A stretch of 64,000 nucleotides of DNA from the NCBI GenBank assembly GCA_965113315.1, contig OZ220367.1. One strand, written 5' to 3'. The position numbers were made by a program, and so were the translations under genes. Below are positions 22,060 to 64,000 of this stretch, piece by piece (the stretch's first letter is position 1; each line of letters begins with the position of its first letter). The DNA is from Podarcis vaucheri (lineage: Eukaryota). Under the pieces are notes generated by a model, which worked only from the letters and a program-made list of their open reading frames with translations, did not search any database and was not told the DNA's origin.

Positions 22060-22990
22060 GCTAACCAAACAAACTGATTAAAATTGGCACCGCCAATTTG
22101 AGTATATTAACATTAGAACAGCTGATAAATGAAGAGGATGAATTTTATACATACTCCATTTTAAGAGACAACTACAGATTACCTACAAATGCTCAGTGGA
22201 AATATCTCCAGATAAAACACTTGCTAACTACCATCTACGGACCAGCAGCTTTTACAGCCTCAGAGACCCCAGAGATATTGAAGCAGCTGATTGATTCTTA
22301 CGCAACAAAAAACCCGGCAATCAGCATATATAAATCTTTGTTACTAGCAAACCAATTTTATATACAGGTACTGAGGGAGGATTGGAATAAAGAATTAGAG
22401 ATCTCAGTTTTGACCACACAATGGGAAACTGTTTTAAGTGCTATAACAAGGGTGTCTCTGGACCTTAAATTTCAGCTCATACAACAAAAAATAATATTTA
22501 GAATATAGTGGACCCCATTATGTTTGTTTTAAAAAGGGCTATCTGAGGTATTTAACCTGTTGGAGATGCAATAGGGATAATGCTTCTCTAAAACATATGT
22601 TTTTCCATTGTCCTATATTGAAAGATTTTTGACAGAAGGTAACTGAAGTTATCAACAAAACTGTACAGAGGAACCTTACATGCACAGAGCAAAATATCCT
22701 TTTAAATTATATGCCCACCACATGGAACCTTACAAAAGGACAATACGAGTGGACTCTCCATGCCCTTACCACAGCAAAATACTGATGATTGGAAAAATAA
22801 AAATGCAACTCCCTTCTACGACTGGGTTGAAGATTTATACAAACTCACAACATATGAACAATTTGCATATATATGCAGACTTGCCATGGACAAATTCAAT
22901 GATATTTGGAATCCATTCCTACAAATACTGCAATAGGTTAAGATTTGGTGAAGTACAATAACAACTTTGTAAAGAAAGAAAAAAGAATTG
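22060..22990 (+). mobile_element. old L1/Tx1-clade LINE ORF2 3' fragment (frameshifted)
   Basis: QWKYLQIKH, W..EL....QW, and KFQLIQQKIIFR, then the CWRC...LKHMFFHCP zinc-finger region with stops and frameshifts, and an A-rich tail. Confidence 0.8.
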
Positions 22991-23639
22991 GCCCCGCCAA
23001 TTGAGCAGCTAAAGCATTAGTTGATTAACCTACTGATTAAAGCATTACCTAGCTACAGGATTTGAAGTATATCCTTACACTTCAGCTTGAGACTGGGCTG
23101 AGAGTTAATTAACATGTGCAAGATCGAAGATGAAATAGGAATAACCTAATAAAGCTGAGAAAATATAGTAGTACTGTACAAAACACAAAAGCGATGTTAT
23201 AACACGTTCTTGATATTAGCATGACCCAGTGGAAAGGGGAAGAAAAACACTAATTAAATAATGTTAAACATTTGAGAAGAAACCTAAAGCAAATGATGGA
23301 GGAACAAGAAGCTTCTCTGTTGGGAAGATTAGCATGCAGTACTGGATTCTTGCTCTTTTCAGCCTCCATTTGCACTGCCTGTGCTATAACTTGGTACCCA
23401 CCCCTCCCCGTTTTGGCCTTTAATCACGGAGGGTAAAGGCGCTTCTACAATATTCATGAAGTTTCTGGAAAAACCCTGGCAGACAGCCTTAGATACATAT
23501 GGCATCACTTAGCAGGAATTAATCCTTGTGAGAAAGGGTTAAGTTGTGTGCGCTAACCCACTGAGCTATGTAGCTCCTCAGTCATCACCTCTCTTATATC
23601 TATGGGAAGTGATGCAGCTTGCCTGAGCAAGGGACTTGG

Positions 23640-24535
23640 ATCTGTTATGATTAAATGGGCACAGGATGTTGGACTTAATATTATGTTTGCTGACTGGGAA
23701 CAGTTATGGGCCACAGGTATGAAGTTTACGGCATGTAATGCCTTAAGAGAGAATATTATGAAAATGATATACAGGTGGCACATGACCCCAGTCAAGCTTG
23801 CAAAAATCTATCATTTGCCCGATAATAAATGTTGGAAATGTAAGGAAACTGAAGGTACATTCTTTCACCTATGGTGGACGTGCCCAAGGATTAAAGCTTT
23901 CTGGGAGATGATTTATAATGAATTGAAAAAGGTATTTAAATATACCTTCCTGAAGAAACCAGAGGCCTTTCTCCTGGGCATTGTCGGCCAATTGGTGCCA
24001 AAGAAGGATAGAATTTTTTTTATGTATGCAACAACAGCAGCAAGAATACTCATCGCAAAGTACTGGAAGACACAAGAACTACCCACCTTGGAAGAATGGC
24101 AGATGAAGGTGATTGACTACATGGAACTGGCAGAAATGACTGGCAGAATCCGAGATCAGGGAGAAGAGTCAGTGAAAGAAGATTGGAAGAAATTTAAAGG
24201 CTATTTACAGAAATATTGTAAAATTAATGAATGTTAGAAGGATGTTGGAAAGAAAGTAAGCGGTTTCCAGCTGTAATGCTTTAAGAGTTATGAAAAAAAA
24301 AAGGGTTCTACAAATGGGTAAAAGTTTAATGGTAAGGATTTGCTGAACCAACAAATTGAATTGGAATACAAAGAAGGGAGGTATGAGGAGGTCCGGGGAA
24401 ATAAGTTTAAGGAAGTTATGCTATGGAAAATTAATGTGTTTTTAACTACTTTTATTTTGTATGTTTCTTTTTATTTTTCATTTTTTTGTTATAACTTAAA
24501 AACTCTTAATAAATATCTTCTAAAAAAAAAAAAAA
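23640..24535 (+). mobile_element. young 5'-truncated L1 LINE
   Basis: Uninterrupted ORF2 C-terminus (CWKC..GTFFHLWWTCP) to the stop at 24237, AATAAA at 24508, poly(A) at 24522-24535, and a perfect 15-bp TSD GAGCAAGGGACTTGG (23625-23639 / 24536-24550). Confidence 0.93.
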
Positions 24536-46460: not shown

Positions 46461-46523
46461 AAGGTAAAGGTAAAAGGACCCCTGACTGTTAGGTCCCGTC
46501 GTGAATGACTCTGGGGTTGCGGT
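46461..46523 (-). mobile_element. Sauria SINE 3' fragment
   Basis: AAGGTAAAGGTAAAAGGACCCCTGAC...GACTCTGGGGTTGCGG. Confidence 0.8.
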
Positions 46524-47362
46524 AGGGAGTAAATTCCACTGAATGCAGTGAAACTTCCTTCTGAGTCAACATGTAAAGAATGTACTGCTAGACTGCAATT
46601 CTATGCACACTTTGCGAGAAGTAAGGCCACTGAAACCAGTGGGAATTCCTTCTAATGAAGCATGCCTTGGGTCCTGTCATTAGAGCACAAGTCTGTTTTT
46701 AAGCATGTTTCTCTGCACTTTTGTGTGTGTACAAAGCTGTTCTTAAATACATGGAAAGAGACGTGTTATACTACAACAATACACAGCTAAAGACATGTTT
46801 TCTTTACAATAAAATAAGTAGTATTATGGAACACAGCCTTTTAGCCTGAGTGTTTAAATCAATCATCCAATGGAAGTAGACTGTGTTGGTTACAATGAAG
46901 AAACAAATTAAATATCAAATTAAATGCTCCCTTCTATGTACCATAAGATCAATACTCACAAAGTAATTTGGGTCTTACTTTCACAAAGAAATAAAAGGCT
47001 GTTATAAAAAGAATGATACAGTCCTTTTAAACATTGAGATATAGTGAAGGTGAACGGATTGAATTTAAGTGTTCTAAAACTTATTTTTTTTGCTTTCAGC
47101 TGTGTAATTGTTTTTCAAAGGATGCTTTGCTCTTCATCTGTATCTCTCCAACTCTCCACCCACCCACCCACCCACCCATGCACACACACACTATAACTGT
47201 ATAGTCTTTAGCATACTGAGAATAGTAGTTGTATTTTAGTTCACTCTTCAGGTATGTTTCCACTTCCACTTCCCCAAGGAAAAGTACACCTGTGCAGCTT
47301 ACCAGAACCAGTTCTCTGGTAATTTATTTCAGTATTTCATTTCAACCATTTATATATCATTT

Positions 47363-47717
47363 AGGTAAAGGTAAAGGGACCCCTGACCATTAGGTCCAGT
47401 CGTGGCCGACTCTGGGGTTGTGGCACTCATCTCGCTTTATTGGCTGAAGGAGCCAGCATACAGCTTCTGGGTCATGTGGCCAGCATGACTAAGCCGTTTC
47501 TGGTGAACCAGAGCAGCACACGGAAACGCCATTTACCTTCCCGCCGGAGCGGTACCTATTTATCTACTTGCACTTTGACGTGCTTTCGAACTGCTAGGTT
47601 GGCAGGAGCAGGGACCGAGCAACGGGAGCTCACCCCGTTGCGGGGATTCGAACCGCCGACCTTCTGATCGGCAAGCCCTAGGCTCTGTGGTTTAGACCAC
47701 AGCACCACCTGCGTCCC
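47363..47717 (-). mobile_element. full-length Sauria SINE
   Basis: On the minus strand it begins GGGACGCAGGTGGTGCTGTGG, has B box GGTTCGAATCC, and ends with the (ACCTTT)n tail. Confidence 0.94.
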
Positions 47718-50527: not shown

Positions 50528-50904
50528 CAGTGGCGTAGCGTGGGGGGTGCCAGGGGTGCCGGCCGCACCGGGTGCAACATCTGGCCCCCCCCCCCGGATC
50601 TGGAGCTCCACCTACAGCCCAAGGAGAGGAGGGGGCGGGGAGGCACCCGAGGGGAGGGGGCTTTGGCTGCCTCAGCCCGCGGGGGCTCCGCAAATAATAG
50701 ATTTAATAAATTCCTGCTGAGCCTTTGGGGGGTGTCCTTGGCTCCTTTGCTCGCCCCCAGCCCCAGTGGCGTAGCGTGGGGGGTGCAGGGGGGCGGGCAC
50801 AACATCTGGGGTGCGCGCTTGCACTCGAGTGCTAAAATCCACGGGTTAGGGGGCGCAAATTATTTGCCTTGCCCCGGGTGCTGACAACCCACGCTACGCC
50901 ACTG
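50528..50904. mobile_element. young GC-rich non-autonomous hAT element
   Basis: Perfect 17-bp TIR CAGTGGCGTAGCGTGGG / CCCACGCTACGCCACTG and 8-bp TSD CCATGAGA (50520-50527 / 50905-50912). Confidence 0.93.
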
Positions 50905-51615: not shown

Positions 51616-53295
51616 AGATGAGTAGGGATGCTATTTAGACCAAATAGTCTAAATGCTATATATACCAAATAGTATATATAGAAGATACACCAAACAAGTC
51701 ATAGATGCACACATGTATACACATGCTAATGATGATGGTGATTTTGGAATTTTTACATTCTGATCTCATATATATTTACTTGGAAAGGTGTCCTACTGAG
51801 TTCCTTTGGAGACAAGTCCCTAGTAAAGGATGATGGCCTGATTGTGTGATGTAGTTCAGCCACTCAGCATTTCTTATAATTTGTTTTCTCTTCTGTGAGT
51901 AATCATCCACTAAGATATTACTTGACATTCTTCCCTCTTCCCGCGAACTTCTGCACATCAAGACAGTTTCGGCACAAACCCTTGCAAACAGACTGAGACT
52001 CCCCACGAGTTCTTTTGATTAATTTCAGCAGAAAACATCATAAATGATGTGATAGGTTGATAACACTGAAGAACCTGTGTAGCTTCAGAAGCAACTAAGC
52101 CACATTTTCCAGGGCAATCCCCATTGGGGCTGAATCACACTCTGTGGGGAACCTTGTGTACTGTGAGGATACGACAACTACCAGAAATTTTGCAAAGGCT
52201 TCAAACCTATCTCCCATAACAGATATGTTAATGAAAGGCCTTAGTGGAAGATTATCCTAAGACAGGATGCTTCAATATAAACTTCCCTTGTTCTCAAGGA
52301 AAAGGAACTGATAGAGAACAACATTTTCATTGACATTTTGACATTTGTATTCCCAATGCTTTTTGCTTTTGCTTTTCAATGACACATTGAAAGTCAGAGA
52401 GCTGTTCTAGTAACTGTCAGACTTTCAAAAAGGTATAAAATGTTCTGAGCTCACCTTCCATCTCTTCCTGGGTGGGGTTCCTCCTTAATTATGAAAACCA
52501 GAGCTTTAAGTAAACTGGAATATCTTACCTCCTTCATTCTGCCATTTTGCGCCCTATCCTAAGCGCTATTGACACAATTGAATCCCTTCCTTTCGCCTTG
52601 CTATGGGTGCCCACTCTCATTTGTGCTTCTCTTCCCCTTGACCTCTTGGATTTTTTTATTCTCCCTGGCTGGCTCCTTCAAACAACCTAAGCTCCCCTCT
52701 AACTCTCCTCAAGACCACATTGAAGTTTGGCTCTTAAGCATCAGGTAGGCAAAACCACCAAAAAAGAGACCACAGGCTTTGTGAACCTACCGGTATTTTA
52801 AAAGTTTGCTTTAAAAAGAGAGGGATTATTCTTAGGAAAATGGGTTTAACATCTAAATTGTTACCTGCACACCAATCAATCCCTAAGGGCAAAATACTAA
52901 TGGGAAAAAGCAAATTAAACACGTTCAGCTCTTCCTGTCTAACTATTTCTTACTTGGTGAAATTCTGCTAAGCAAGATTCTCTCAGTTAGCGTTCTTATG
53001 ATATTATGTCAGTTAGCAGCCCACTTTCCTTCCTCCTGCACCAAGCTTGAGTTCTTCTGATCTTCCTGTGTGTCCTTCTGATCTCCTGCAAGCAGCTCCC
53101 TATCTATCTCCCTGAGCTACACTTCAATCCATGAACATACCAGACAACAAAAGGTTCACTTTTGCCTTAATCCACTCTACTGACCAGACCACCCTCAATC
53201 CATATTTTACCTTCATCTCCTGAAGTGTTTACCTGCCAGACAAGGTTGGCTCCAGGAAGCAAATTAACCACATAATTGCCAAACCAAACGATATA

Positions 53296-53542
53296 CAGTG
53301 GTACCTTGGGTTAAGTACTTAATTCGTTCCGGAGGTCCGTTCTTAACCTGAAACTGTTCTTAACATGAAGCACCACTTTAGCTAATGGGGCCTCGCACTG
53401 CCGGAGCATGATTTCTGTTCTCATCCTGAAGCAAAGTTCTTAACCCAAGGTACTATTTCTGACTTTGCGGAGTCTGTAACCTGAAGTGTCTGTAACTTGA
53501 AGCATCTGTAACCTGAAGCATATGTAACCCAAGGTACCACTG
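53296..53542. mobile_element. Tc1/mariner-type MITE
   Basis: Perfect TIR CAGTGGTACCTTGGGTTA / TAACCCAAGGTACCACTG with a TA duplication. Confidence 0.9.
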
Positions 53543-54177
53543 TACAGGTTTCTTTGTTTATTTCAAAGCAATACCACTTCTTCATACTCCCTCAACCAGT
53601 AAAATAAATTCAGTGACTCTGCCAACTTAGGCCACCTCAAATCCTGCTTCTTCCAAAATATCACCACATTATGAGAGGCATTCAGGAACCTTACTAATAT
53701 TACACAAATGGTGCTAAGTAGCGAGTTTCAACCTGGAATGGACAAATCTCTTAATTTTGGTTCTACAAATTTCTTATTTTTCCTTTCCCTAGAAATTCAT
53801 CAGCATTACAGAATTTCTCCTAACAAACATATTTTTGTATGCAATTTTCACTAATATGCACATTTTGTAAGCAATTTTCTGTAATATAATGCAATTTGTA
53901 CATTAGGTTTACTATATATTTTATGCATGCATGTACCCAAGTACACATGCTTCTGTACACATTACTTGGCTGGAGAACTGCATTGCAAAATTCAGAGAAG
54001 TACGTTTGTTTGTTGGTTGGTTGGTTGGTTGGTTGGTAAGGCTATATTTTAGTTCACATATTGTTTTTTTAAAAGTGTGATTTTGGCAAATTCATGTTTA
54101 AATGCAAACTGAATCAACTTTCCCTCCCATCCCTAGCCCCTATCAAGTTTTTTTGTTTTTACCTATTTAGTATCAGA

Positions 54178-54487
54178 GTGGGACGCGGGTGGCGCTGTGG
54201 GTTAAAGCCTCAGCGCCTAGGGCTTGCCGATCGAAAGGTCGGCAGTTCGAATCCCCGTGGCGGGGTGCGCTCCCGTTGCTCGGTCCCAGCGCCTGCCAGC
54301 GGGAAGGTAAACGGCGTTCCGTGTGCTGCGCTGGCTCGCCAGATGCAGCTTTGTCACGCTGGCCACGTGACCCGGAAGTGTCTCCGGACAGCGCTGGCCC
54401 CCGGCCAATAGATGTGAGATGGGCGCACAAACCCCAGAGTCTGTCAAGACTGGCCCGTTCGGGCAGGGGTACCTTTACCTTTACCTT
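54178..54487 (+). mobile_element. Sauria SINE, divergent CpG-rich subfamily with internal deletion
   Basis: GGGACGCGGGTGGCGCTGTGG head, B box, (ACCTTT)n tail, and 14-bp TSD TATTTAGTATCAGA (54164-54177 / 54488-54501). Lacks the TATTTATCTACTTGCAC block. Confidence 0.92.
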
Positions 54488-55532
54488 TATTTAGTATCAG
54501 AAGCTTTGAACCCAATTCTATGGTATTAAGAAGGAAAATAACTTCACGTTTCTATTTCCGCCATTGCTTGTGTAAGCACAATACAGTCAGAACCCAGAAC
54601 TCATTTTTGTGTTCTGCATTTAAATGTTCATGGCATAAACCTCATGACAACATAGTGAGTTCACACGATCACTCTTTCGAAACGCTGACCTCTAAACAAG
54701 ATTTCCTGAAGTTGTAACTTACCCTTTTCTAACCACAATTCACTTATGAACTATTCCCCTTAAAAAAAGGACTTATGAATATGATCTTACTGTGAGTGGA
54801 ATAAGAAATGCTTTTGGCTGCTCCAAACACTAAAATAAAGTTAATCTGACCTTTTAAAAAGAGCCCTCTCCATTTTAACCAGCAGAATTGCTTTACATTT
54901 TGTCTTTACTGAAACAATCAGAGGAGAAATCTAATTTGAGTTTGAATAGATGAGCTGTCACACTCTAAATGTGCATACACAGTACCTTCACTGACATTAT
55001 GTCAATTGTATTTTTCTTCTTTTGAATACAAAAAAGGAGATAGCCCCAGTGCTTAAAATAACAAGTGAGAAACAAAGGCTCCTTTTCGTTAACCACCTAT
55101 AAGGACCTGAAAATACCTTGTTAGAAGGAACAAAGGCAACATTGCCTCTGTGTAGTAGCTAAAGCTCCAGCCCTTTCTGTCTGGCCAGGAATCAGGTATA
55201 AAGAGCCAGTTAAGAAACCCATGGGAAGTGTGAAAAAGGCAGAGCCAAAGTCTTCTTTCCTAGCTTCAAGCCATGTGAACTGTTCAGAATCAGAGCAATC
55301 TCAGCATGACTCCTGTCGCCACGCTATTGCATTGCTAGGAAATAATACAAGTGTGGTGCTTGGAGCTTTTGAAAGCCATCGGGATTGAGAAATCCTAGAA
55401 AGTTATTCTGTAAAAATATCACACACTGGGGATAAAGTAATATTCAAAATGTCTTTATGTATTTCTTTTTTAAAAACTATATGTGTCCTTTGATAATAAT
55501 ATCAGGGTGTGTTTTGAATAATTTTCTATATA

Positions 55533-55746
55533 GCGTGTTCTCATAAAAGAGAGAGCACGTGTTGCGGATGGGGCCGAACAAAACCCCCAGTTAGTGACCA
55601 GGCCATTGATGGCAATGGGCTGGAGTAGATTGGAAGAAGTTGTTACTGGGGCAAAATTGATGTTGCCAATTTAGGGGTGGGGTCAGACCCCTTATATAAG
55701 CAGGGTCCACAGCTTTCTCTTTCTCTTTCGCTGTGGACATCGGATC
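55533..55746 (+). repeat. Ngaro repeat A1 (214 bp)
   Basis: Identical by eye to 61936-62149. Confidence 0.95.
55629..55740 (+). promoter_or_regulatory. putative Pol II promoter in A1
   Basis: ATTGG at 55629, CCAAT at 55666, GGGGTGGGG at 55674 and TATATAAG at 55693-55700, in canonical spacing. Confidence 0.65.
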
Positions 55747-56440
55747 ACATGGAGCACTTGGACTGTCTGGAGGACAGTGATGCAAACTTCTCATTGGTTA
55801 CATTTCTTTATTTCCCCCTTCTTTTAATCCTCTTTAGTCCCTTAAATAATTTAATTCCCCCTTTTCCTGTTCAATTTCCCACCCCACCCCTTACCCTGCC
55901 CTGTGGGAAGATTCTCCCTGTATCTGTGGCTTGCCTTTCTTTCGCAAAAAGGTTTCCCCCATTTCTCCTGTTGTAAATTGTGGGGCTAGTCAGGGCTGTT
56001 CCCAGCTTAGCTGGAATCACTTTCGTTTATAGCACCCCGAAGGTTGGCTTTATTTGAGTGTGTGCAGCGCTGTTGGCCAAATTTTAATCTAGCCTTGGGC
56101 GGGAGCACTATTTTGAGTTCCTTTAATATTGCTATGAGACTAAGATTCTCAAGAGCAGAGGCATGGAGGCCTATTCGGCCTGCGCATAACTTCCGAGCCT
56201 AAGTATGCTACAGGTAGCAGTTAATTGTTAAGTCTCTGACCTCTCTATAAGAATGTACCTGCTTGCAGGCTCAGTTGCCGCTAATGTATATCTGAGGCAG
56301 ACAGAGGGCGGCAGAGGCTCTCTGTGCCTCCAATGACTATGAGCACTCCGTATATGCTCTTGAACTATGCTGTTTCTGAACAAGTTTATTTTCTTTAAGT
56401 TTGTTTTGCCCTGATAGTGGCGACTGCCATTTTAGAGGCG

Positions 56441-56515
56441 AGCCATTGTGGTTTAGTGGCTAAAGTGTAGGACTAGGACCTGGGAGACAGGGTTCATATC
56501 CCCCTCTTAGCCATT
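56441..56515 (+). mobile_element. old tRNA-type SINE head inside the Ngaro interior
   Basis: TGTGGTTTAGTGGCTAAAGTGTAGGACTAGGACCTGGGAGACAGGGTTCATATCCC shows degenerate A and B boxes. Confidence 0.55.
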
Positions 56516-57292
56516 GTTATAACAAAACAAAACAAACTGCTCCTTTTGGGCTATTCTGTTGCTGGGTAGTTCGGCCCATTTGTGATAAAAGAACTTTGGG
56601 TTTCTTGAAGGGGTGCTTCCCTCTAAAAGGGCAAGCAGGGGTGCCTGGACAAGCTGTGGGCTGCCTCAACTCTGCTATTTCACTGGAAACATTTATGCCT
56701 GGCCTAGCAGGTGATCCAAGGGCTTTGCCCTAGAATTCGATGGCCTGGAAGCATTTCCGGCCTGAATAGTGTCCCCATGTGGTCCACGAAGCATTGGTTT
56801 CACCAGTTCCTTACATTGTTTAGTTTTTGCGGACTATGACTGGGCTTTTGCAAATGCCTCAAGAGCTTGCCTCTCCTGCAGGGGATGACTTGTGGACGCC
56901 CCAGCTGTCTTCTTCCAGAAGGAAGCATCTTCGAAGGCTGCAATCCAGGAGGAGGGCAAAGAGGAGCAGGGATCATGATTCAGACATCACCTTGGACCTC
57001 TACAGGGGTCAGGGTGAGGCTGTCCTGGGTCTTTAGGGATCGTCCTGGATAGCTCAGCTGGTCAGCGCATAGTGCCGGTAATGCCTAGGTTGCAGGATTG
57101 GTCCCTATATGGGACAGCTGCATGCTCCCCCATTGCTCTACCTGGACACTTAGGTCCAGTCTCGAGGGCCTTTTGGTGGTTCCCTCACTGCGAGGGATGT
57201 AACAGGCGCCACGTTTGCAATATGCAAGCGGGAGAAAGCACCTTTGTGTGCCCGCACTGCAGTTTGCTCTGTGTGTTGCAGGGCTCAGCGCT

Positions 57293-57940
57293 GCACGGGC
57301 TGCATTTGCATTGCATTGCGTGAGAGATTTGCATTTGCATTGCACGGAGGTTGTGTGCATTGCACAGAGGGTGTGTGTGCATTGCACAGAGGGTGTGTGT
57401 GCATTGCACAGAATGTGTGTGTATTGCATAGAGTGTGTGTGCATTGCACGGAGGGTGTAGTGGCATTGCACAGAGTGTGTGTGTGTTTTTTGTGTTGTTG
57501 TTGTTTTTTGCATTGCACAGAGAGTGCATTGCACAGAGTGTGTAGTTGCATTGCATGGAGGGTAGTTGCATCGCACAGTGTGCGTTTTTGCATTGAACGG
57601 AGTGTGTAGTTGCATTGAACGGAGTGTGTAGTTGCATTGCATGAAGTGTGTAGTTGCATTGCACGGAGTGTGTAGTTGCATTGCATGAAGTGTGTAGTTG
57701 CATTGCATGGAGTGTGTAGTTGCATTGCACAGAGTGTGTAGTAGCATTGCATGGAGGGTAGTTGCATTGCATGGAGTTGCAATGCGTTTTTGCATTGCAC
57801 GAAGTGCGTTTTTGCATTGCACTGAGTGTGTAGTTGCATTGAACGGAGCGTGTAGCTGCATCGCACGGAGTATAGTTGCATTGCTTGGTTTGTGTGAGCA
57901 CTGCACGGAGTGTGTTTTTTGCATTGCACAGAGTGTGTGT
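57293..57940 (+). repeat. ~22-bp minisatellite (GCATTGCACRGAGTGTGTAGTT)n
   Basis: Roughly 30 degenerate tandem units anchored on TGCATTGCA. Confidence 0.93.
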
Positions 57941-57967
57941 CTGAAAAGGAAGCTGGCTCGGCAGCAG

Positions 57968-58060
57968 TTTTGTCGGGACTTTTTTAGCGGTTCTGGCCAG
58001 CGTCGGCCCTGTAAATTTACGTATTATGATGGCAGCACAAGATGCCCCCTGCCCAAGCGG
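57968..58060 (+). pseudogene. degenerate Ngaro gag C-terminal Cys/His finger
   Basis: FCRDFFSGSGQRRPCKFTY..., compare CWxFNxGxCxxxxCKFxH. Confidence 0.55.
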
Positions 58061-58099
58061 GGCTGGAAGCTGGCAAGCAATAGCTCAATACCTTTTGCC

Positions 58100-58935
58100 C
58101 ATATTCCATTTTATTTAGGGATCCAGTTGGATATCGTTGCTAAAACATACCACTTGCCTATGGAGAAGCTGTCTGCCTTGAAGGAAGTTATTTTGTAATA
58201 CTTCCTCTGTAGCAAGTGATGCTTCATCAGATCTGATCTTGCTGGGTCACTTAATTAATCTTGCATGCAGAGTGGTTGCCCCAGGCCGCCCCTTCCCTTC
58301 CCACTAGGCCAGGCTGCCTGGGGCCTGAGGTCCCCTTACCTTTCTCATGCAATGGTTGCAATTCCTAAATGTTGAGGTCCCCTTACCTCTCTCATGCAAT
58401 GGGATCTCATGCAATGGTTGCAATTCCTATATGTATGCAATAGTAGTTGGCCATGGCAGGATACTTGCACAGGGATTTTTCAGGTTCATGCTGATGCTGC
58501 TGGATCTTTGCCCTTTGGGTTTTTTTTTTTTATTTATTTATTTCAGGGGCTGCTGGTGTGCAAAGCTATGGCCTCAAGCCCGGTATGGTGAGGCAATCAT
58601 GTGACCTAACTTTTGAGTTTTCCCCATTGTAGTAGCAGTTCACATGTGGCCCGAGGAGTTCAGTGACCATCGGATCTGCTTTTGGTCTGATAACCAGGTA
58701 GTGGTGAGCGTCTTGGCTAAACAGTTCTCACGCTCCAGCAGAGTCTCCGCCCCTCCGCTCACGCTTTTGAGCTGCACCGCTTAAGGTTTAATATTGTGCT
58801 TTCTGCTCTCCTGATTACGGGATCCTCTAATGATGTCTCTGATACTCTATCCCATTTTCAGATTGAGCGCTTCAGATCCTGGGCTCCAGACACTCAGCTA
58901 TTGCCAGACTTTTCCAGACCACCTGTGGCATTTTG
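58100..58935 (+). pseudogene. RT C-terminus + RNase H (frameshifted; RT catalytic core missing)
   Basis: YLGIQLD..YHLPMEKL, LGHL..ACRVVAPGRPF, WLQFL, VHADAAGS, EFFPIVVAVHMW, FWSDNQVVV, NDVSDTLSHFQ..FR. Many stops and frameshifts. Confidence 0.88.
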
Positions 58936-58959
58936 ACAACAATTAGTAATTACAGAGAG

Positions 58960-59820
58960 CAGCAGCTTCCATTTCCCCTTCTGCTTTTAGCTCTTATGGG
59001 AAGGCCTGGATGGATTTCTTAGCCTTAAGCTGGCAGTCCTCGGCCATTCAGATGAACTGGCCCCCATCCTCTGAGCAGATCCTGCAGTATTTGGTCCACC
59101 TGCCGCAGATTGGGCGGGCTGTTATAACTATAAGAATTCAGTCCGCTGCAATGTCTGTTATACTGAAGATTTATTTTTCAGAGACCCTTGCATAAAGTTT
59201 GTAATGCGCAGGGCCTTGGAAGGTTGGAATAGGCTCCAACCTCATAGGACAGTGGGCAGGAAGTCGGTCAATTTTATCTATGCAGGATCTGCAACAAGTT
59301 AAAACTTGTCTGCTGGTAAAAGATCAAGGCGAGACTCCTTTCAGTATTCCATTGCATTTTGGGCACTGAGGGTTGGGGAAATGGTTGTTGGAGCCAGCAC
59401 AGGGCTGAGAGTCTGGAGGCTTATTGCTTCAGGACTTTTCCTTATTTGCTTTGGAGCTTGTCATTAGAGTTGGGAACTCTAAAACAGACTTAGTGGGCAG
59501 GAGTGCCACAATCAGGCTTCCCATTACAGATGAGGAGGGCCCTTGCACGGTTATGGATACCAGAAAAATTTGGCTTTTCATTCCCCTGGGGGCTGGCCCA
59601 CTCCTAGTGCATGAAAATGGGTTCCCATTAGCCAGGCATTAATGTGCTTACATCGTGCACCAGTTATCACGGCCTGCGGCTTGCCTACCGCTGAACACTC
59701 CTCATTCCTTACGATTAGGTGCTGCTGCAAAGGCTGCACACTGGGGGCCTGTCAGTAGACAGGATTTTGAATACGGGTCATTGGAAGTCTGACGCTGACG
59801 AGGGTTATATCAGGAAGTGT
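58960..59820 (+). pseudogene. tyrosine recombinase (frameshifted)
   Basis: SYGKAWMDF, WPPS, ALEGW, LRVGE (59366), SKTD (59478), PLLVHENG.PL, HSLRLGAA (59703) and GHWKSDA..GYIR (Tyr at 59806) give the R-HxxR-Y signature. Confidence 0.9.
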
Positions 59821-59869
59821 CACAATGATGTCTGTGCTGATGCTTGTCTGTTATTTCCTTTTCTCATAG

Positions 59870-60180
59870 GAGCAGCTGTGCACATTTGGGCCACAGCATT
59901 GTAGACTGGGCTGGCAAGCGCGCTGACAAGTCTGGACTGGGGCGCCATCTCAGTCTTCCTGCCCATGTGAACATATGCTGGATGTCCAGATGGGGAATGC
60001 TTTGGGAGGAGGTCCTTCCTTTGGTGCGGTCGAGTGTGACCTGTGCAGGTCCTCCCGCAGTGCTGGTGGTACAGCTAGGCGGGAATGATTTGCCGTCTTC
60101 CTCCAGCATAAGTTTGCATTCCTGCATGCAAGAGGGCTTGGATTGAGTTGATGGCAGCTCTCCCTGGACTCAAAATAATT
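59870..60180 (+). pseudogene. degenerate, 3'-truncated SGNH hydrolase (copy 1)
   Basis: VHIW/GHSIVDWA..W..RWGMLW..PPAVLVVQLGGND. It is frameshifted, has a stop, and lacks the DxxH block. Confidence 0.85.
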
Positions 60181-60359
60181 TAAGGCATTTGGTTCAAGGT
60201 GGTCTGGAGGGGGGTTGGAGCACCTGTCCCCTCCAATGCGCAAAGATATTCCATTAAAGGAAACCAAGGATTTGCCATGCTTTGTCAACCCCCTTTCGAG
60301 GGGTAGGGCCACGCAAGAGTCCCTGGGAGCATTTGGGGTGAGCTTGAGTCTGATCCTGG

Positions 60360-60900
60360 TTCATTGCTCCCCCACGCTGTTTACTTGTTCTGACGATATG
60401 GTGGGGCCCAGTCGTCAGTGCTGCTCTGCTGAGGTCAGATGCAGCTAGTCGGGAACCAATGCCTAGACAAACTACCACCGAGCAGGCCAGAAAGCATGTT
60501 AATATGGCGGTGGAAAATAAAATAAAATAAATAAAGTAAATAAAATAAAATAAAATAACATATAAAATAAAATAGGTCCTTGCTTTAGGTGGTTCTGTGA
60601 TATTGCACCCTGCTATTTTCTTCAAGACTGTTCCCCTCTTTGGGGCAGATGGGGGGTGCATCTTTCCCCTATGGGGAACGACACCTGGCGGGATGCGATT
60701 GCCTTGGGATTCATTGCTCCCCCACAATGTTGCTGGTACTGACAATATGGTGGGGCCCAGTCGTCAGTGCTGCCCTGCTGAGGTCAGGTGCAGCTAGTCA
60801 GGAACCAGTGCCTAGACAAACTACCACCAAAGAGGCCGGTAAGCATGTTAATAAGGAAGTGTAAAATAATAAAATAAAATAAAATAAAGAATAATAAAAT
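60360..60900 (+). repeat. diverged direct repeat pair (60360-~60560 and 60710-60900), remnant B-type ends of the older element
   Basis: Both copies read TTCATTGCTCCCCCAC...ATATGGTGGGGCCCAGTCGTCAGTGCTGC...GCCTAGACAAACTACCACC...(AAAAT)n, with multiple substitutions. Confidence 0.85.
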
Positions 60901-60907
60901 TCTTCAG

Positions 60908-61482
60908 GTCGGGCCGCTATCCGTATCTGGATAGTAGGGCACAGTATTGTGCATTGGGCTGCGGACAGAGCTCGTCAGTCTGGACTGGGCGATGGCCTGG
61001 GCTTTCCGCAGCACGTACAGTTGTCCTGGATCTCCAGAAGGGGGATGCTGTGGAGGGAATTCTTACCTCTCATGCAACGGCGTGTCCTACGGTTTGGCCC
61101 TCCTTCGGCGATCATGGTGCAGCTCGGGGAGAACGATATGGTTTCCTCTTCCTGCTATGGGCTGCGTGCTGCCATATTACAGGACCTTGGAGAGCTGGCG
61201 GCACTGGTGCCGTCAACTAAGCTAATTTGGTCACAGCTATTGCAACGCCACATTTGGCGAGGTAGTCCTTGCCCAGCCGCCACCGAACGTGTAAGGAAGC
61301 GGATTAATTCTGCGGCAAGCAAGCTGGTGGTGAATCTGGGCGGGTCTGTGATCCCTCACCCTCTGATTTCATTCAAGGCGATTGAATTTTATAGGGATGA
61401 CGGGGTTCATCTCTCGCCAGTTGGGAATGATGTGTGGTTGGATGCTATGGTGTCCAGGCTGAGGGTGTGGCTTAATTTGTGA
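60908..61482 (+). CDS. intact SGNH/GDSL-family hydrolase of the Ngaro element (probably a spliced exon)
   Basis: Open frame 60898-61482. Block I IWIVGHS, block II G (RRGM), block III QLGEND and block V DGVH are all present. There is no ATG before the catalytic Ser, and the frame is preceded by TTCTTCAG. Confidence 0.85.
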
Positions 61483-61511
61483 GTGGTTGGCGGCGAGCGT
61501 AAGGGCTCGAA

Positions 61512-61932
61512 TGGCGGTTAGGCATTGGTTAAAATTGGTTGGTGGAGGGGTATGGATTGGCTGTGCCTGCCCCTCCAATGCTGCTGCAGACGGGTATTCC
61601 GTTAAAGGAATTCTGAAGCTTACCATCCCCCTCGTCCAAACCCTGACGGCAGGGTGCGGGCCGTGTAAGCTTCAAGGAACATGCGCGGAGCAGTGAGAGT
61701 CTGTGACGCAGCTCCATCTGACTCTGACCATGTTTCCTCCGGGACTGGCTACGGAGTCAGTGCTGTCCCCCCAAGGCGGGGGGGGACAGGTAGTCATAAC
61801 CAATGCCTAAGCAACCACTCTCAATTTGTATAAAAATAAAGTTGTGGCCAAAATTATGCCAAAAACCTTAAACAAAAATTACGTGTGATGTCTGAGTTAT
61901 TGGGGTAGGGGTTTTGGGGGACCTCAGCACGC
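61512..61932 (+). repeat. Ngaro repeat B1 (421 bp)
   Basis: Identical by eye to 62318-62738 (offset 806). Contains AATAAA at ~61835. Confidence 0.95.
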
Positions 61933-61935
61933 AAA

Positions 61936-62149
61936 GCGTGTTCTCATAAAAGAGAGAGCACGTGTTGCGGATGGGGCCGAACAAAACCCCCAGTTAGTGA
62001 CCAGGCCATTGATGGCAATGGGCTGGAGTAGATTGGAAGAAGTTGTTACTGGGGCAAAATTGATGTTGCCAATTTAGGGGTGGGGTCAGACCCCTTATAT
62101 AAGCAGGGTCCACAGCTTTCTCTTTCTCTTTCGCTGTGGACATCGGATC
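61936..62149 (+). repeat. Ngaro repeat A2
   Basis: Identical by eye to A1, including the CCAAT, GC-box and TATA motifs. Confidence 0.95.
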
Positions 62150-62317
62150 TCCCGCCCGCCCTCCCTTGATTTGGGCTTGCGCTTTGACCTTGCTCTGCCT
62201 GTCATGGGGTCGTTCGCCTTGGTGCGGGGGCCCAGTAGGAATTTGTCCAATTGGCTGATTAGTGCGTGCCTTTTGGGTTTTGCCTACTGCTTAGCAAATC
62301 GTCACAACTTGTAAGGT

Positions 62318-62738
62318 TGGCGGTTAGGCATTGGTTAAAATTGGTTGGTGGAGGGGTATGGATTGGCTGTGCCTGCCCCTCCAATGCTGCTGCAGACGGG
62401 TATTCCGTTAAAGGAATTCTGAAGCTTACCATCCCCCTCGTCCAAACCCTGACGGCAGGGTGCGGGCCGTGTAAGCTTCAAGGAACATGCGCGGAGCAGT
62501 GAGAGTCTGTGACGCAGCTCCATCTGACTCTGACCATGTTTCCTCCGGGACTGGCTACGGAGTCAGTGCTGTCCCCCCAAGGCGGGGGGGGACAGGTAGT
62601 CATAACCAATGCCTAAGCAACCACTCTCAATTTGTATAAAAATAAAGTTGTGGCCAAAATTATGCCAAAAACCTTAAACAAAAATTACGTGTGATGTCTG
62701 AGTTATTGGGGTAGGGGTTTTGGGGGACCTCAGCACGC
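62318..62738 (+). repeat. Ngaro repeat B2
   Basis: Identical by eye to B1. AATAAA at 62641 followed by a GT-rich tract suggests a poly(A) site. Confidence 0.95.
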
Positions 62739-64000
62739 AAATAGCAGACAGATGAAGAATCAGAAGTTCTTTCTTTTTATTTTTTCTTCCTTTCTCTCTT
62801 CTCTCGTTTTTTCTCCCTTTTGGTTTCTGTTTTTATTTAGTTTTATTATTTTTGATAAAAAGATATTGGACATTAACCTTATTACATTTTCTTTCAAACT
62901 TTAATAATAGTAGATGTGCATGAGACAAAAGGATGTCTGGAATTTGATTGGCAGAGTTGTTGCTATTTGCAGTAAGCAGCCCTTCCAGGGGGCAAATAAT
63001 AGCTGTGGGGAGGACCAGGAGTGCTTCTCTGATCCAGACTGAAGCACATTCCAGTTGGAAGGTCCATACAGCTTCTTTTCCTTCAAAACAAAAGCAGCCA
63101 GCTTTGACAAAGCTTCTAAAATAAGTGTGACTAACGTAACACTTTGTTTGGATCTAATCAATCCCAATTCTGTGTTCTAAATGTGATTGTGATGTTTTGC
63201 TAGGGAGTCAAGACGAAACCAGAACTGATGTGTATTCACCGATGTTGTTAATGTGTTATGCTTGACAAAATTTTCATAAGGAGTTGGGTTTCTGAGCATA
63301 TTTTTGCCCTTGCTGGTTTATATTTCTTCCAATGGCCAAAAATAAATCTGTACTGTTTCATCCTTTACAAAAATGTGACATGCACGTTAAAAAGTGCTAA
63401 GTAAAACTGACGAATCTTGCATCTTCTTTTCTAGGTTAAGCTAGATAATTTTGCAAAGCCAGATTTTATGCTCTTTGAACATTGAGTCCATTGAGTAACT
63501 CAGCTTCATGTCTCAATTATTTAATTCCAAGTCCACGGAGAGATTCTTAAAATAACGGCTTCAGAGGCCCAATGCCAAGAATTGGGATGGTAGCAGAGCA
63601 CATTATGGACTGCGCGAAAAGCAAATGTTGACAGTTAAAAGCGCGTCAACTTCTATGCTTTTAAAGCTGTGTGAAGTGGAGAGAAGCAGAATCTTCTGCA
63701 GACAGTAGATTCTACTTTCCCCAACACACTGAAAATAATACTCGCTGGCCAATTAAATGCTGGAAAAGTGAGGCTAAAAGAGATGAGGCTAGATTTGACC
63801 TAGTTAGTTTCATTTAAGTTCTCAGAGCGATAAAAGGAGCAGGAAAGGAAGGAAATCAGCAAAGCACACCAGATAGTTTCCTAAATTACGAGAGGCAAAA
63901 CACTCCTGAGGAATACTCAAGAACATAAAAATGATTATCTCTTTTCTTAACTCTCTGTGAAATCAACGACTCCACATCTGTTTGCTATAATATTTAATGA

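Follow-up and report, generated by a model that had tools for sequence, protein, structure and literature searches.

Evidence for serial replacement of the terminal repeats of a defective Ngaro-type family in the genome of Podarcis vaucheri

Introduction

Non-autonomous elements of soybean are reportedly able to take the terminal repeats of a partner and so renew the partnership, a process that Du et al. are said to have described in 2010 as long terminal repeat (LTR) swapping. Here we analyse a Ngaro-type element in a 64,000-nucleotide stretch of Podarcis vaucheri DNA (GenBank assembly GCA_965113315.1, contig OZ220367.1; hereafter the window), together with its family of copies and their intact relatives. 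Exchange of terminal repeats between defective elements and their helpers is known for LTR retrotransposons (PMC13570524, PMC6894440) and for pararetroviruses (PMC5491270); statements about these and the other papers cited refer to the accessible part of each text. Copy-choice switching between co-packaged RNAs, and chimeras carrying LTRs from other families, are described for the former (PMC6894440, PMC13570524), and in non-autonomous pararetroviruses more than 18 region-specific recombination events keep the cis signals matched to the helper (PMC5491270).

Ngaro elements are recognised by split direct repeats in the order A1...B1-A2-B2, and a Xenopus Ngaro of the DIRS-53_XT type carries an SGNH hydrolase (PMC9210276). 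SIRE is a non-autonomous A2-B2 derivative of VIPER, a tyrosine recombinase (YR) element with split direct repeats (PMC6681497), and action in trans has been shown for DIRS-1 (PMC7192593). We found no report of a non-autonomous Ngaro family that exchanges its ends, or shell, in the accessible Ngaro and tyrosine recombinase literature, including PMC9210276, PMC6681497, PMC8547959 and PMC7192593, a search outside which most subscription papers lie; Repbase or Dfam may already annotate the family. The element in the window has a dead body, and it is almost certain that this body has undergone serial shell replacement, acquiring the ends of different intact Ngaro families.

Results

A dispersed, non-autonomous Ngaro-type family

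The element extends from 55532 to 62740 and has the split direct repeat arrangement of a Ngaro, with A1 identical to A2 and B1 identical to B2 (100% in each case by self-comparison; Table 1). Its genes follow the order gag, reverse transcriptase/RNase H (RT/RH), YR and SGNH hydrolase, as remnants, and the Ngaro-like assignment rests on the split direct repeats together with the hydrolase. The first-pass annotation of this stretch recognised the pristine B1-A2-B2 end and began the element at 55747; the 55746/55747 boundary is the usual end of A, also in intact elements, and the true start lies at 55532. An autonomous Ngaro has an intact RT and YR, and here the RT core is missing and the YR contains stops. 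No RT-core match was found in the window, and remnants of the core are kept in one of 60 family copies, being absent from the window and from 59 of the 60; the family therefore cannot copy itself and is non-autonomous.

A search with positions 60600–61100 recovered the whole junction near 60900 in 34 of 40 scored candidates at 94–100% identity, with the remaining six sharing the left side and continuing differently, so that the structure belongs to a multi-copy family and not to a single event as first proposed. Among 20 fetched copies, 17 are colinear with the window sequence (about 97%), the other three constituting a sister subfamily. A 25-mer of the body has 270 exact matches in the genome, and all 20 of the further sites fetched are family copies. 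The copies are dispersed, with exact ends alike and flanks that differ, and they share the same lesions, as befits a non-autonomous family. Classification of 61 copies by exact motif gave 18 of window type, 17 with a duplicated unit, 16 of YR-end type and 10 others. Among the 31 copies that have both A1 and A2, the two repeats are at least 99% identical in 29, regardless of which shell the copy carries.

No consistent target-site duplication was seen in 14 family and five intact copies, and the left flank ends in AA, as B does, in 10 of the 14 family copies. Target-like duplications of 9–10 bp, unusual for YR elements, flank L021 and L045, the rest showing none. At the 3' ends of L032 and L038, at L029, L033–L035 and L040, and at L122–L136 there are tandem B-A-B-A-B arrays, single-B endings and solo A-spacer-B units, the last analogous to solo LTRs.

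One clade of bodies, many shells

The family comprises one body clade with many shells, each related to a different intact family, in a nested series of one, two and three layers. The intact-type Ngaros used for comparison number 34, 20 of them chosen by hydrolase similarity and 14 added. They have the A1...B1-A2-B2, gag, RT/RH, YR and hydrolase layout, and the genome holds many young intact subfamilies (L041–L060, L108–L121).

In the RH tree, the 60 family copies form a single clade against 20 intact elements (support 100/100; L080 is without the RH segment), and in the YR tree the family is again a clade (100/100) apart from the sampled intact families. Hydrolase 1, the first of the hydrolase sequences in the window element, groups with the corresponding hydrolase of L074, L071 and L070 (93/93). 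With the YR and hydrolase trees rooted on a distant Ngaro group, the family YR and hydrolase 1 branch outside the nearer intact families, with sister-group support of only 87/77 and 89/96. Hydrolase 2 falls in a different clade from hydrolase 1, with the L041–L048, L059 and L060 families (98/91), and both it and B1-A2-B2 nest among intact families. The separate phylogenies for which the first-pass annotation had called thus bear out its chimera, in that body and hydrolase 2 belong to separate clades, and extend it from one fusion of two lineages to a series of fusions. They also give its 'older' body a narrower meaning, that of an earlier-branching lineage for which no intact member was found.

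The terminal repeats behave quite differently from the monophyletic body and group with different autonomous partners. Fifty-six family copies interleave with 20 intact elements in the B tree, from which L030, L073, L089 and L093 (partial or rearranged) and L062 (no B) were omitted; there are 10 label changes, at least six of them forced by well-supported branches, and monophyly of the family copies is rejected (approximately unbiased test, p-AU 6.7e-52). Individual pairings include L063, L069 and L075 with L041–L059 types (A 98–99%, B 98%), L072 with L056 (B 99.3%), the L037 type with L052 (B 94%) and the window element with L042, L044 and L060 (B 97–98%, A 93%). The intact families group in much the same way by RH as by B, and the simplest direction of transfer is therefore from intact to defective elements.

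Remnants of earlier ends are layered in the 3' region

Behind the YR, a splice-acceptor-like site ending at 59870 precedes the GHS...GGND motifs of hydrolase 1, the frame of which stops at 60144 and continues as a frameshifted tail to 60182, the C-terminal half being missing. This is the degenerate hydrolase previously marked at 59870–60180, and the B-homologous segment said to begin at 60181 is equally genuine: 60183–60470 aligns end to end with the true B of old solo A-B units (72%, E 3e-34 for L104), as well as with the true B of the relative L074, and its global alignment score is 220 compared with -66 ± 12 for shuffled sequences and only 75 against the element's own B1. The diverged partial duplicate at 60710–60900 was likewise found, and is 86.6% identical to 60360–60551. 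Every feature listed in that annotation is present; it missed a hydrolase C-terminal fragment at 60575–60710, which brings the element to three hydrolase pieces and two B remnants.

The A tract at 60514–60574, an (AAAAT)n repeat, begins about 7 nt past the site homologous to the AATAAA of B, where a poly(A) tail is expected, and may be such a tail in decayed form. We also considered that the A-rich tail might be the 3' end of a separate long or short interspersed element (LINE or SINE), and this was not supported, as the 20 sites sampled from the 270 of the adjacent 25-mer all proved to be family copies. B contains a short internal inverted repeat (AGGCATTGGTT / AACCAATGCCT, at 61521–61531 and 61799–61809) and a GC hairpin (61763–61789), both of which persist in the old B remnants.

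Other copies represent the layers separately. L074 has one layer, with the body, half of hydrolase 1 and a true terminal B at the position matching remnant 1, and L071, L078 and L080 have two, with the A tract, a complete hydrolase C-terminus and then a new B1. Sister copies repeat a unit consisting of the B 3' half, tail and hydrolase C-terminus, and the whole second unit is found in 17 of the 61 copies classified. L078 (5422–5504) and L080 (5395–5491) have an extra B-remnant end with an A tail within hydrolase 1. The captured hydrolase of L076, L094, L095 and L099 has an internal duplication of about 355 bp (85% identity) that probably arose when two donors recombined once more.

An origin of these layers without any fusion would be that a single Ngaro family naturally had tandem hydrolases and duplicated B segments inside, amplified and then decayed. 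The layered region is indeed common to many copies, and within the family the second unit arose by duplication. However, all 34 intact-type elements have exactly one hydrolase, and two tandem hydrolases or an extra internal B, the arrangement named beforehand as counting against a chimera, occur in none (L047 has one extra weak 29% hydrolase match inside its YR, and in L109 a single gene is split). With hydrolases 1 and 2 in different clades and B monophyly rejected, this origin is scarcely credible.

Junctions and entry points

In all 18 window-type copies the junction reads CTTCAG/GTCGGG, the bases as far as AG being of recipient type and GT opening the donor exon. The junction had been placed at the A-rich tail beside the hydrolase acceptor; the acceptor is correct, and the join lies a few bases past the tail, with a 4-base AGGT overlap on the donor hydrolase acceptor. 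Independent entry points lie elsewhere too: at the YR end through a GGTC overlap in the L070 type, and inside the YR in L098. Seamless swaps also occur, as L064 and L069 agree at 97–100% as far as early B1, beyond which L064 follows L052 and L069 follows L047 (L055, misaligned in this B1 crossover mapping, was ignored there).

Hydrolase 2 and its expression in intact elements

The second, distinct hydrolase reported earlier is an open frame at 60907–61482 with GHS, GEND and DGVH motifs, up to 90.6% identical in amino acids to those of intact elements (L042/L044). It matches Pfam Lipase_GDSL at E 0.004, below the curated cut-off; the GDSL match of L044 is also below cut-off, with RVT_1 and Phage_integrase above it. 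The ratio of non-synonymous to synonymous rates against L044 (dN/dS about 0.17) reflects the history of the donors. Selection or function within the family finds no support: family hydrolase 2 differs from L028 by 18 non-synonymous and 10 synonymous changes, few and not independent (ratio about 0.6), indels are present in two of 18 family copies, and L070 and L076 have captured hydrolases that are no longer intact. It is probable that hydrolase 2 joined the element recently, as a passenger.

The hydrolase frame of intact elements lacks an ATG and is preceded by a pyrimidine tract and AG, which suggests that it is expressed by splicing. Three raw RNA runs of organism A, of low depth and on both strands, gave no joint at the hydrolase acceptor, and contigs of four runs from other organisms cover body and hydrolase 2 bins, skip the A-rich repeat and leave the junction unbridged.

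The old body and its surroundings

The RT tail/RNase H remnant has 35–37% amino acid identity to intact L044, L052, L056 and L057, and the YR remnant 38–42% to the nearer intact YRs. Apart from the C-terminal remnant in Table 1, gag matches in the 5' body of the element were not significant. Within the dead gag region lies a TGCATTGCAC-rich minisatellite of 22 bp (57311–57940, about 28 copies), which varies among copies. Short pieces of another, commoner repeat seem to be embedded at 57045–57194; sequences flanking other loci match them, and they accumulate RNA reads whose ends are loose.

Table 1. Features of the Ngaro-type element, in positions of the window.
Feature	Position	Strand	Remarks
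A1 split direct repeat, current shell	55532..55746	+	100% to A2; 93% to A of intact L042/L044/L060
TATA-like box	near 55692		within A1
5' part of old body, decayed gag region	55747..58030	+	
gag C-terminal remnant	57950-58024		E 4e-4
Frameshifted remnant of RT tail and RNase H, lacking the RT catalytic core	58112..58943	+	
YR remnant, stops and frameshifts	58950..59817	+	
Hydrolase 1, N-terminal half only (layer 1)	59871..60182	+	
Old B repeat remnant 1, through decayed AATAAA box	60181..60513	+	
(AAAAT)n tract	60514..60574	+	putative decayed poly(A) tail
Hydrolase C-terminal fragment, earlier captured cassette (layer 2)	60575..60710	+	tblastn
Remnant 2, the 3' half of an old B repeat (second unit, diverged family member)	60710..60862	+	86.6% to remnant 1
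Second A-rich tract	60863..60900	+	
Newest junction, CTTCAG as in sister subfamily, AG/GT join to donor hydrolase exon start	60901..60910	+	
Hydrolase 2, open SGNH/GDSL frame without ATG (layer 3)	60907..61482	+	90.6% amino acid identity to L042/L044
B1	61512..61934	+	100% to B2; 97–98% to L042/L044/L060
A2	61935..62149	+	
A2-B2 spacer	62150..62317	+	99.4% to L044/L060
B2, element end	62318..62740	+	

Elsewhere in the window there are what we take to be Sauria-SINE-like copies, miniature inverted-repeat (MITE-like) elements with terminal inverted repeats and LINE ORF2-like fragments (46461–47698, 54200–54487, 53294–53544, 50528–50792 and 22065–24237).

Discussion

How the shells were exchanged is less firmly established than the exchange itself. 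We think it probable that the body was joined repeatedly to helper 3' ends by template switching of the reverse transcriptase and was mobilised in trans. Helper proteins would package and copy the body RNA, and copying would start on the B-A-B end of a helper and then move across to the RNA of the body. A jump at the poly(A) tail or at a 4-base microhomology would leave the old end inside as a layer (60514–60574, 60901–60910), and one within the conserved first 50 or so bases of B1 would swap the shell seamlessly. The new A2 would next serve as the source for rebuilding A1, a single 3' event in this way changing both ends, and a subfamily whose new shell fits an active helper would expand.

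Several points weigh against this picture. None of the 34 intact-type elements proved to be an intact parent of the body; a pattern search for the start of B gave no matches, one for its end gave five, all solo A-B units, and 10 extra YR loci (PF00589 search) and four more hydrolase matches were no closer, with YR at 30–41% amino acid identity. The closest intact family matches the current shell unevenly, at 88–93% over hydrolase 2, 93% over A and 99.5% over early B, so that the donor is either missing or itself a mosaic, and relative to L044 the shell of the window is mosaic. None of 77 A sites, of which 62 were matched by eye to known copies and 15 were fetched (13 solo A-B units and two interrupted family copies), belongs to an intact element with the window's exact A variant. 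Switching at the RNA level is deduced only from the junction sequences. One copy, L061 (G000:C30:868837–878700), has a sister-type 5' part, a window-type 3' end and an A1/A2 identity of 86%, and is flanked by a direct duplication of about 1.7 kb. It resembles two neighbouring insertions joined in the chromosome, unless the assembly is at fault at this locus; in the former case, joining takes place at the DNA level as well. Finally, the newest junction coincides exactly with a splice acceptor; splicing accounts for this better than chance does, and read-through plus splicing is therefore a real rival.

According to that rival, serial shell replacement took place in the same manner except that read-through and splicing produced the newest capture. 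Transcription would have run from a copy of the body into an intact Ngaro that had inserted at it or behind it, a cryptic CAG/GTGGTT donor in the sister subfamily's hydrolase fragment would have been spliced to the helper hydrolase acceptor, and the product reverse-transcribed. The switch from recipient bases at AG to donor exon at GT in 18 of 18 window-type copies fits this, as do the pyrimidine tract and AG that intact elements carry at the junction site, and DIRS-1 is reported to insert into pre-existing copies (PMC7192593). The AG/GT bases are, however, also a 4-base microhomology, the other captures (16 of 61 copies at the YR end by exact motif, L098 and the swaps within B1) are not at acceptors, and no nested precursor was seen among the fetched loci. 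We regard this route as unlikely, yet deserving of attention.

It is more doubtful still that most shell swaps happened between inserted copies in the chromosomes, through gene conversion or ectopic recombination where the start of B is conserved, with the chimeras then amplified by ordinary retrotransposition. The mismatched A1 and A2 and duplicated flanks of L061 are what such a process would give, frequent DNA recombination is evident from the solo A-B units, the copies with a single B and the tandem A-B arrays, and the seamless swaps in B1 fit either route. Exchange at the DNA level leaves unexplained how an A-rich tract, located where poly(A) is expected, came to adjoin an entry in mid-hydrolase, and also the joins with 4-base overlaps between sequences only about 40% alike in protein. 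Nested insertion of one Ngaro in another, among the routes first suggested, is not supported because self-comparison shows no second, inner A and no outer or donor gag or RT inside.

A broader proposal can be made, tentatively and with somewhat less than even expectation: that a coding-dead lineage has outlived its autonomous parent across several related host species by obligate re-shelling onto each new helper, with the layers a time series of extinct helpers, the start of B a built-in swap point and the newest layer captured by splicing. If true, this would demonstrate helper-specific cis signals in A and B, and regeneration of A1 from A2, in a superfamily with only modelled replication.

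Ngaro replication has mostly been modelled, and the family offers a natural experiment on it: in 29 of 31 copies A1 has come to match after a 3' capture, scars resembling poly(A) mark the points in B at which transcripts stopped, and a body that is itself dead is spread in trans. The prediction is that A and B hold helper-specific signals, and the family shows where recombination happens. For annotation, consensus libraries would wrongly split or merge the copies, and A1/A2 identity dates the last jump only, not the body.

By analogy, the family may be regarded as the Ngaro counterpart of LTR swapping. Unlike the soybean elements, it has split direct repeats, changes both ends through one 3' event, draws on many donor families and retains old ends as internal layers. 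The pararetroviruses differ in being viral genomes with homogenised intergenic regions, and no layered scars are described in the accessible text (PMC5491270). The systems in which co-packaged RNAs recombine are LTR/integrase elements (PMC6894440, PMC13570524), and for the Ngaro family co-packaging is only deduced. SIRE matches the solo A-B units of this genome, and neither a captured body nor shell swaps are described for it in the accessible text (PMC6681497). The DIRS-53_XT type (PMC9210276, as far as accessible) has the same A1...B1-A2-B2 structure and the same gag, RT/RH, YR and hydrolase; relative to it, the element in the window has its RT core deleted, its YR broken, three hydrolase pieces and two internal B remnants, and a body and ends that come from different lineages.

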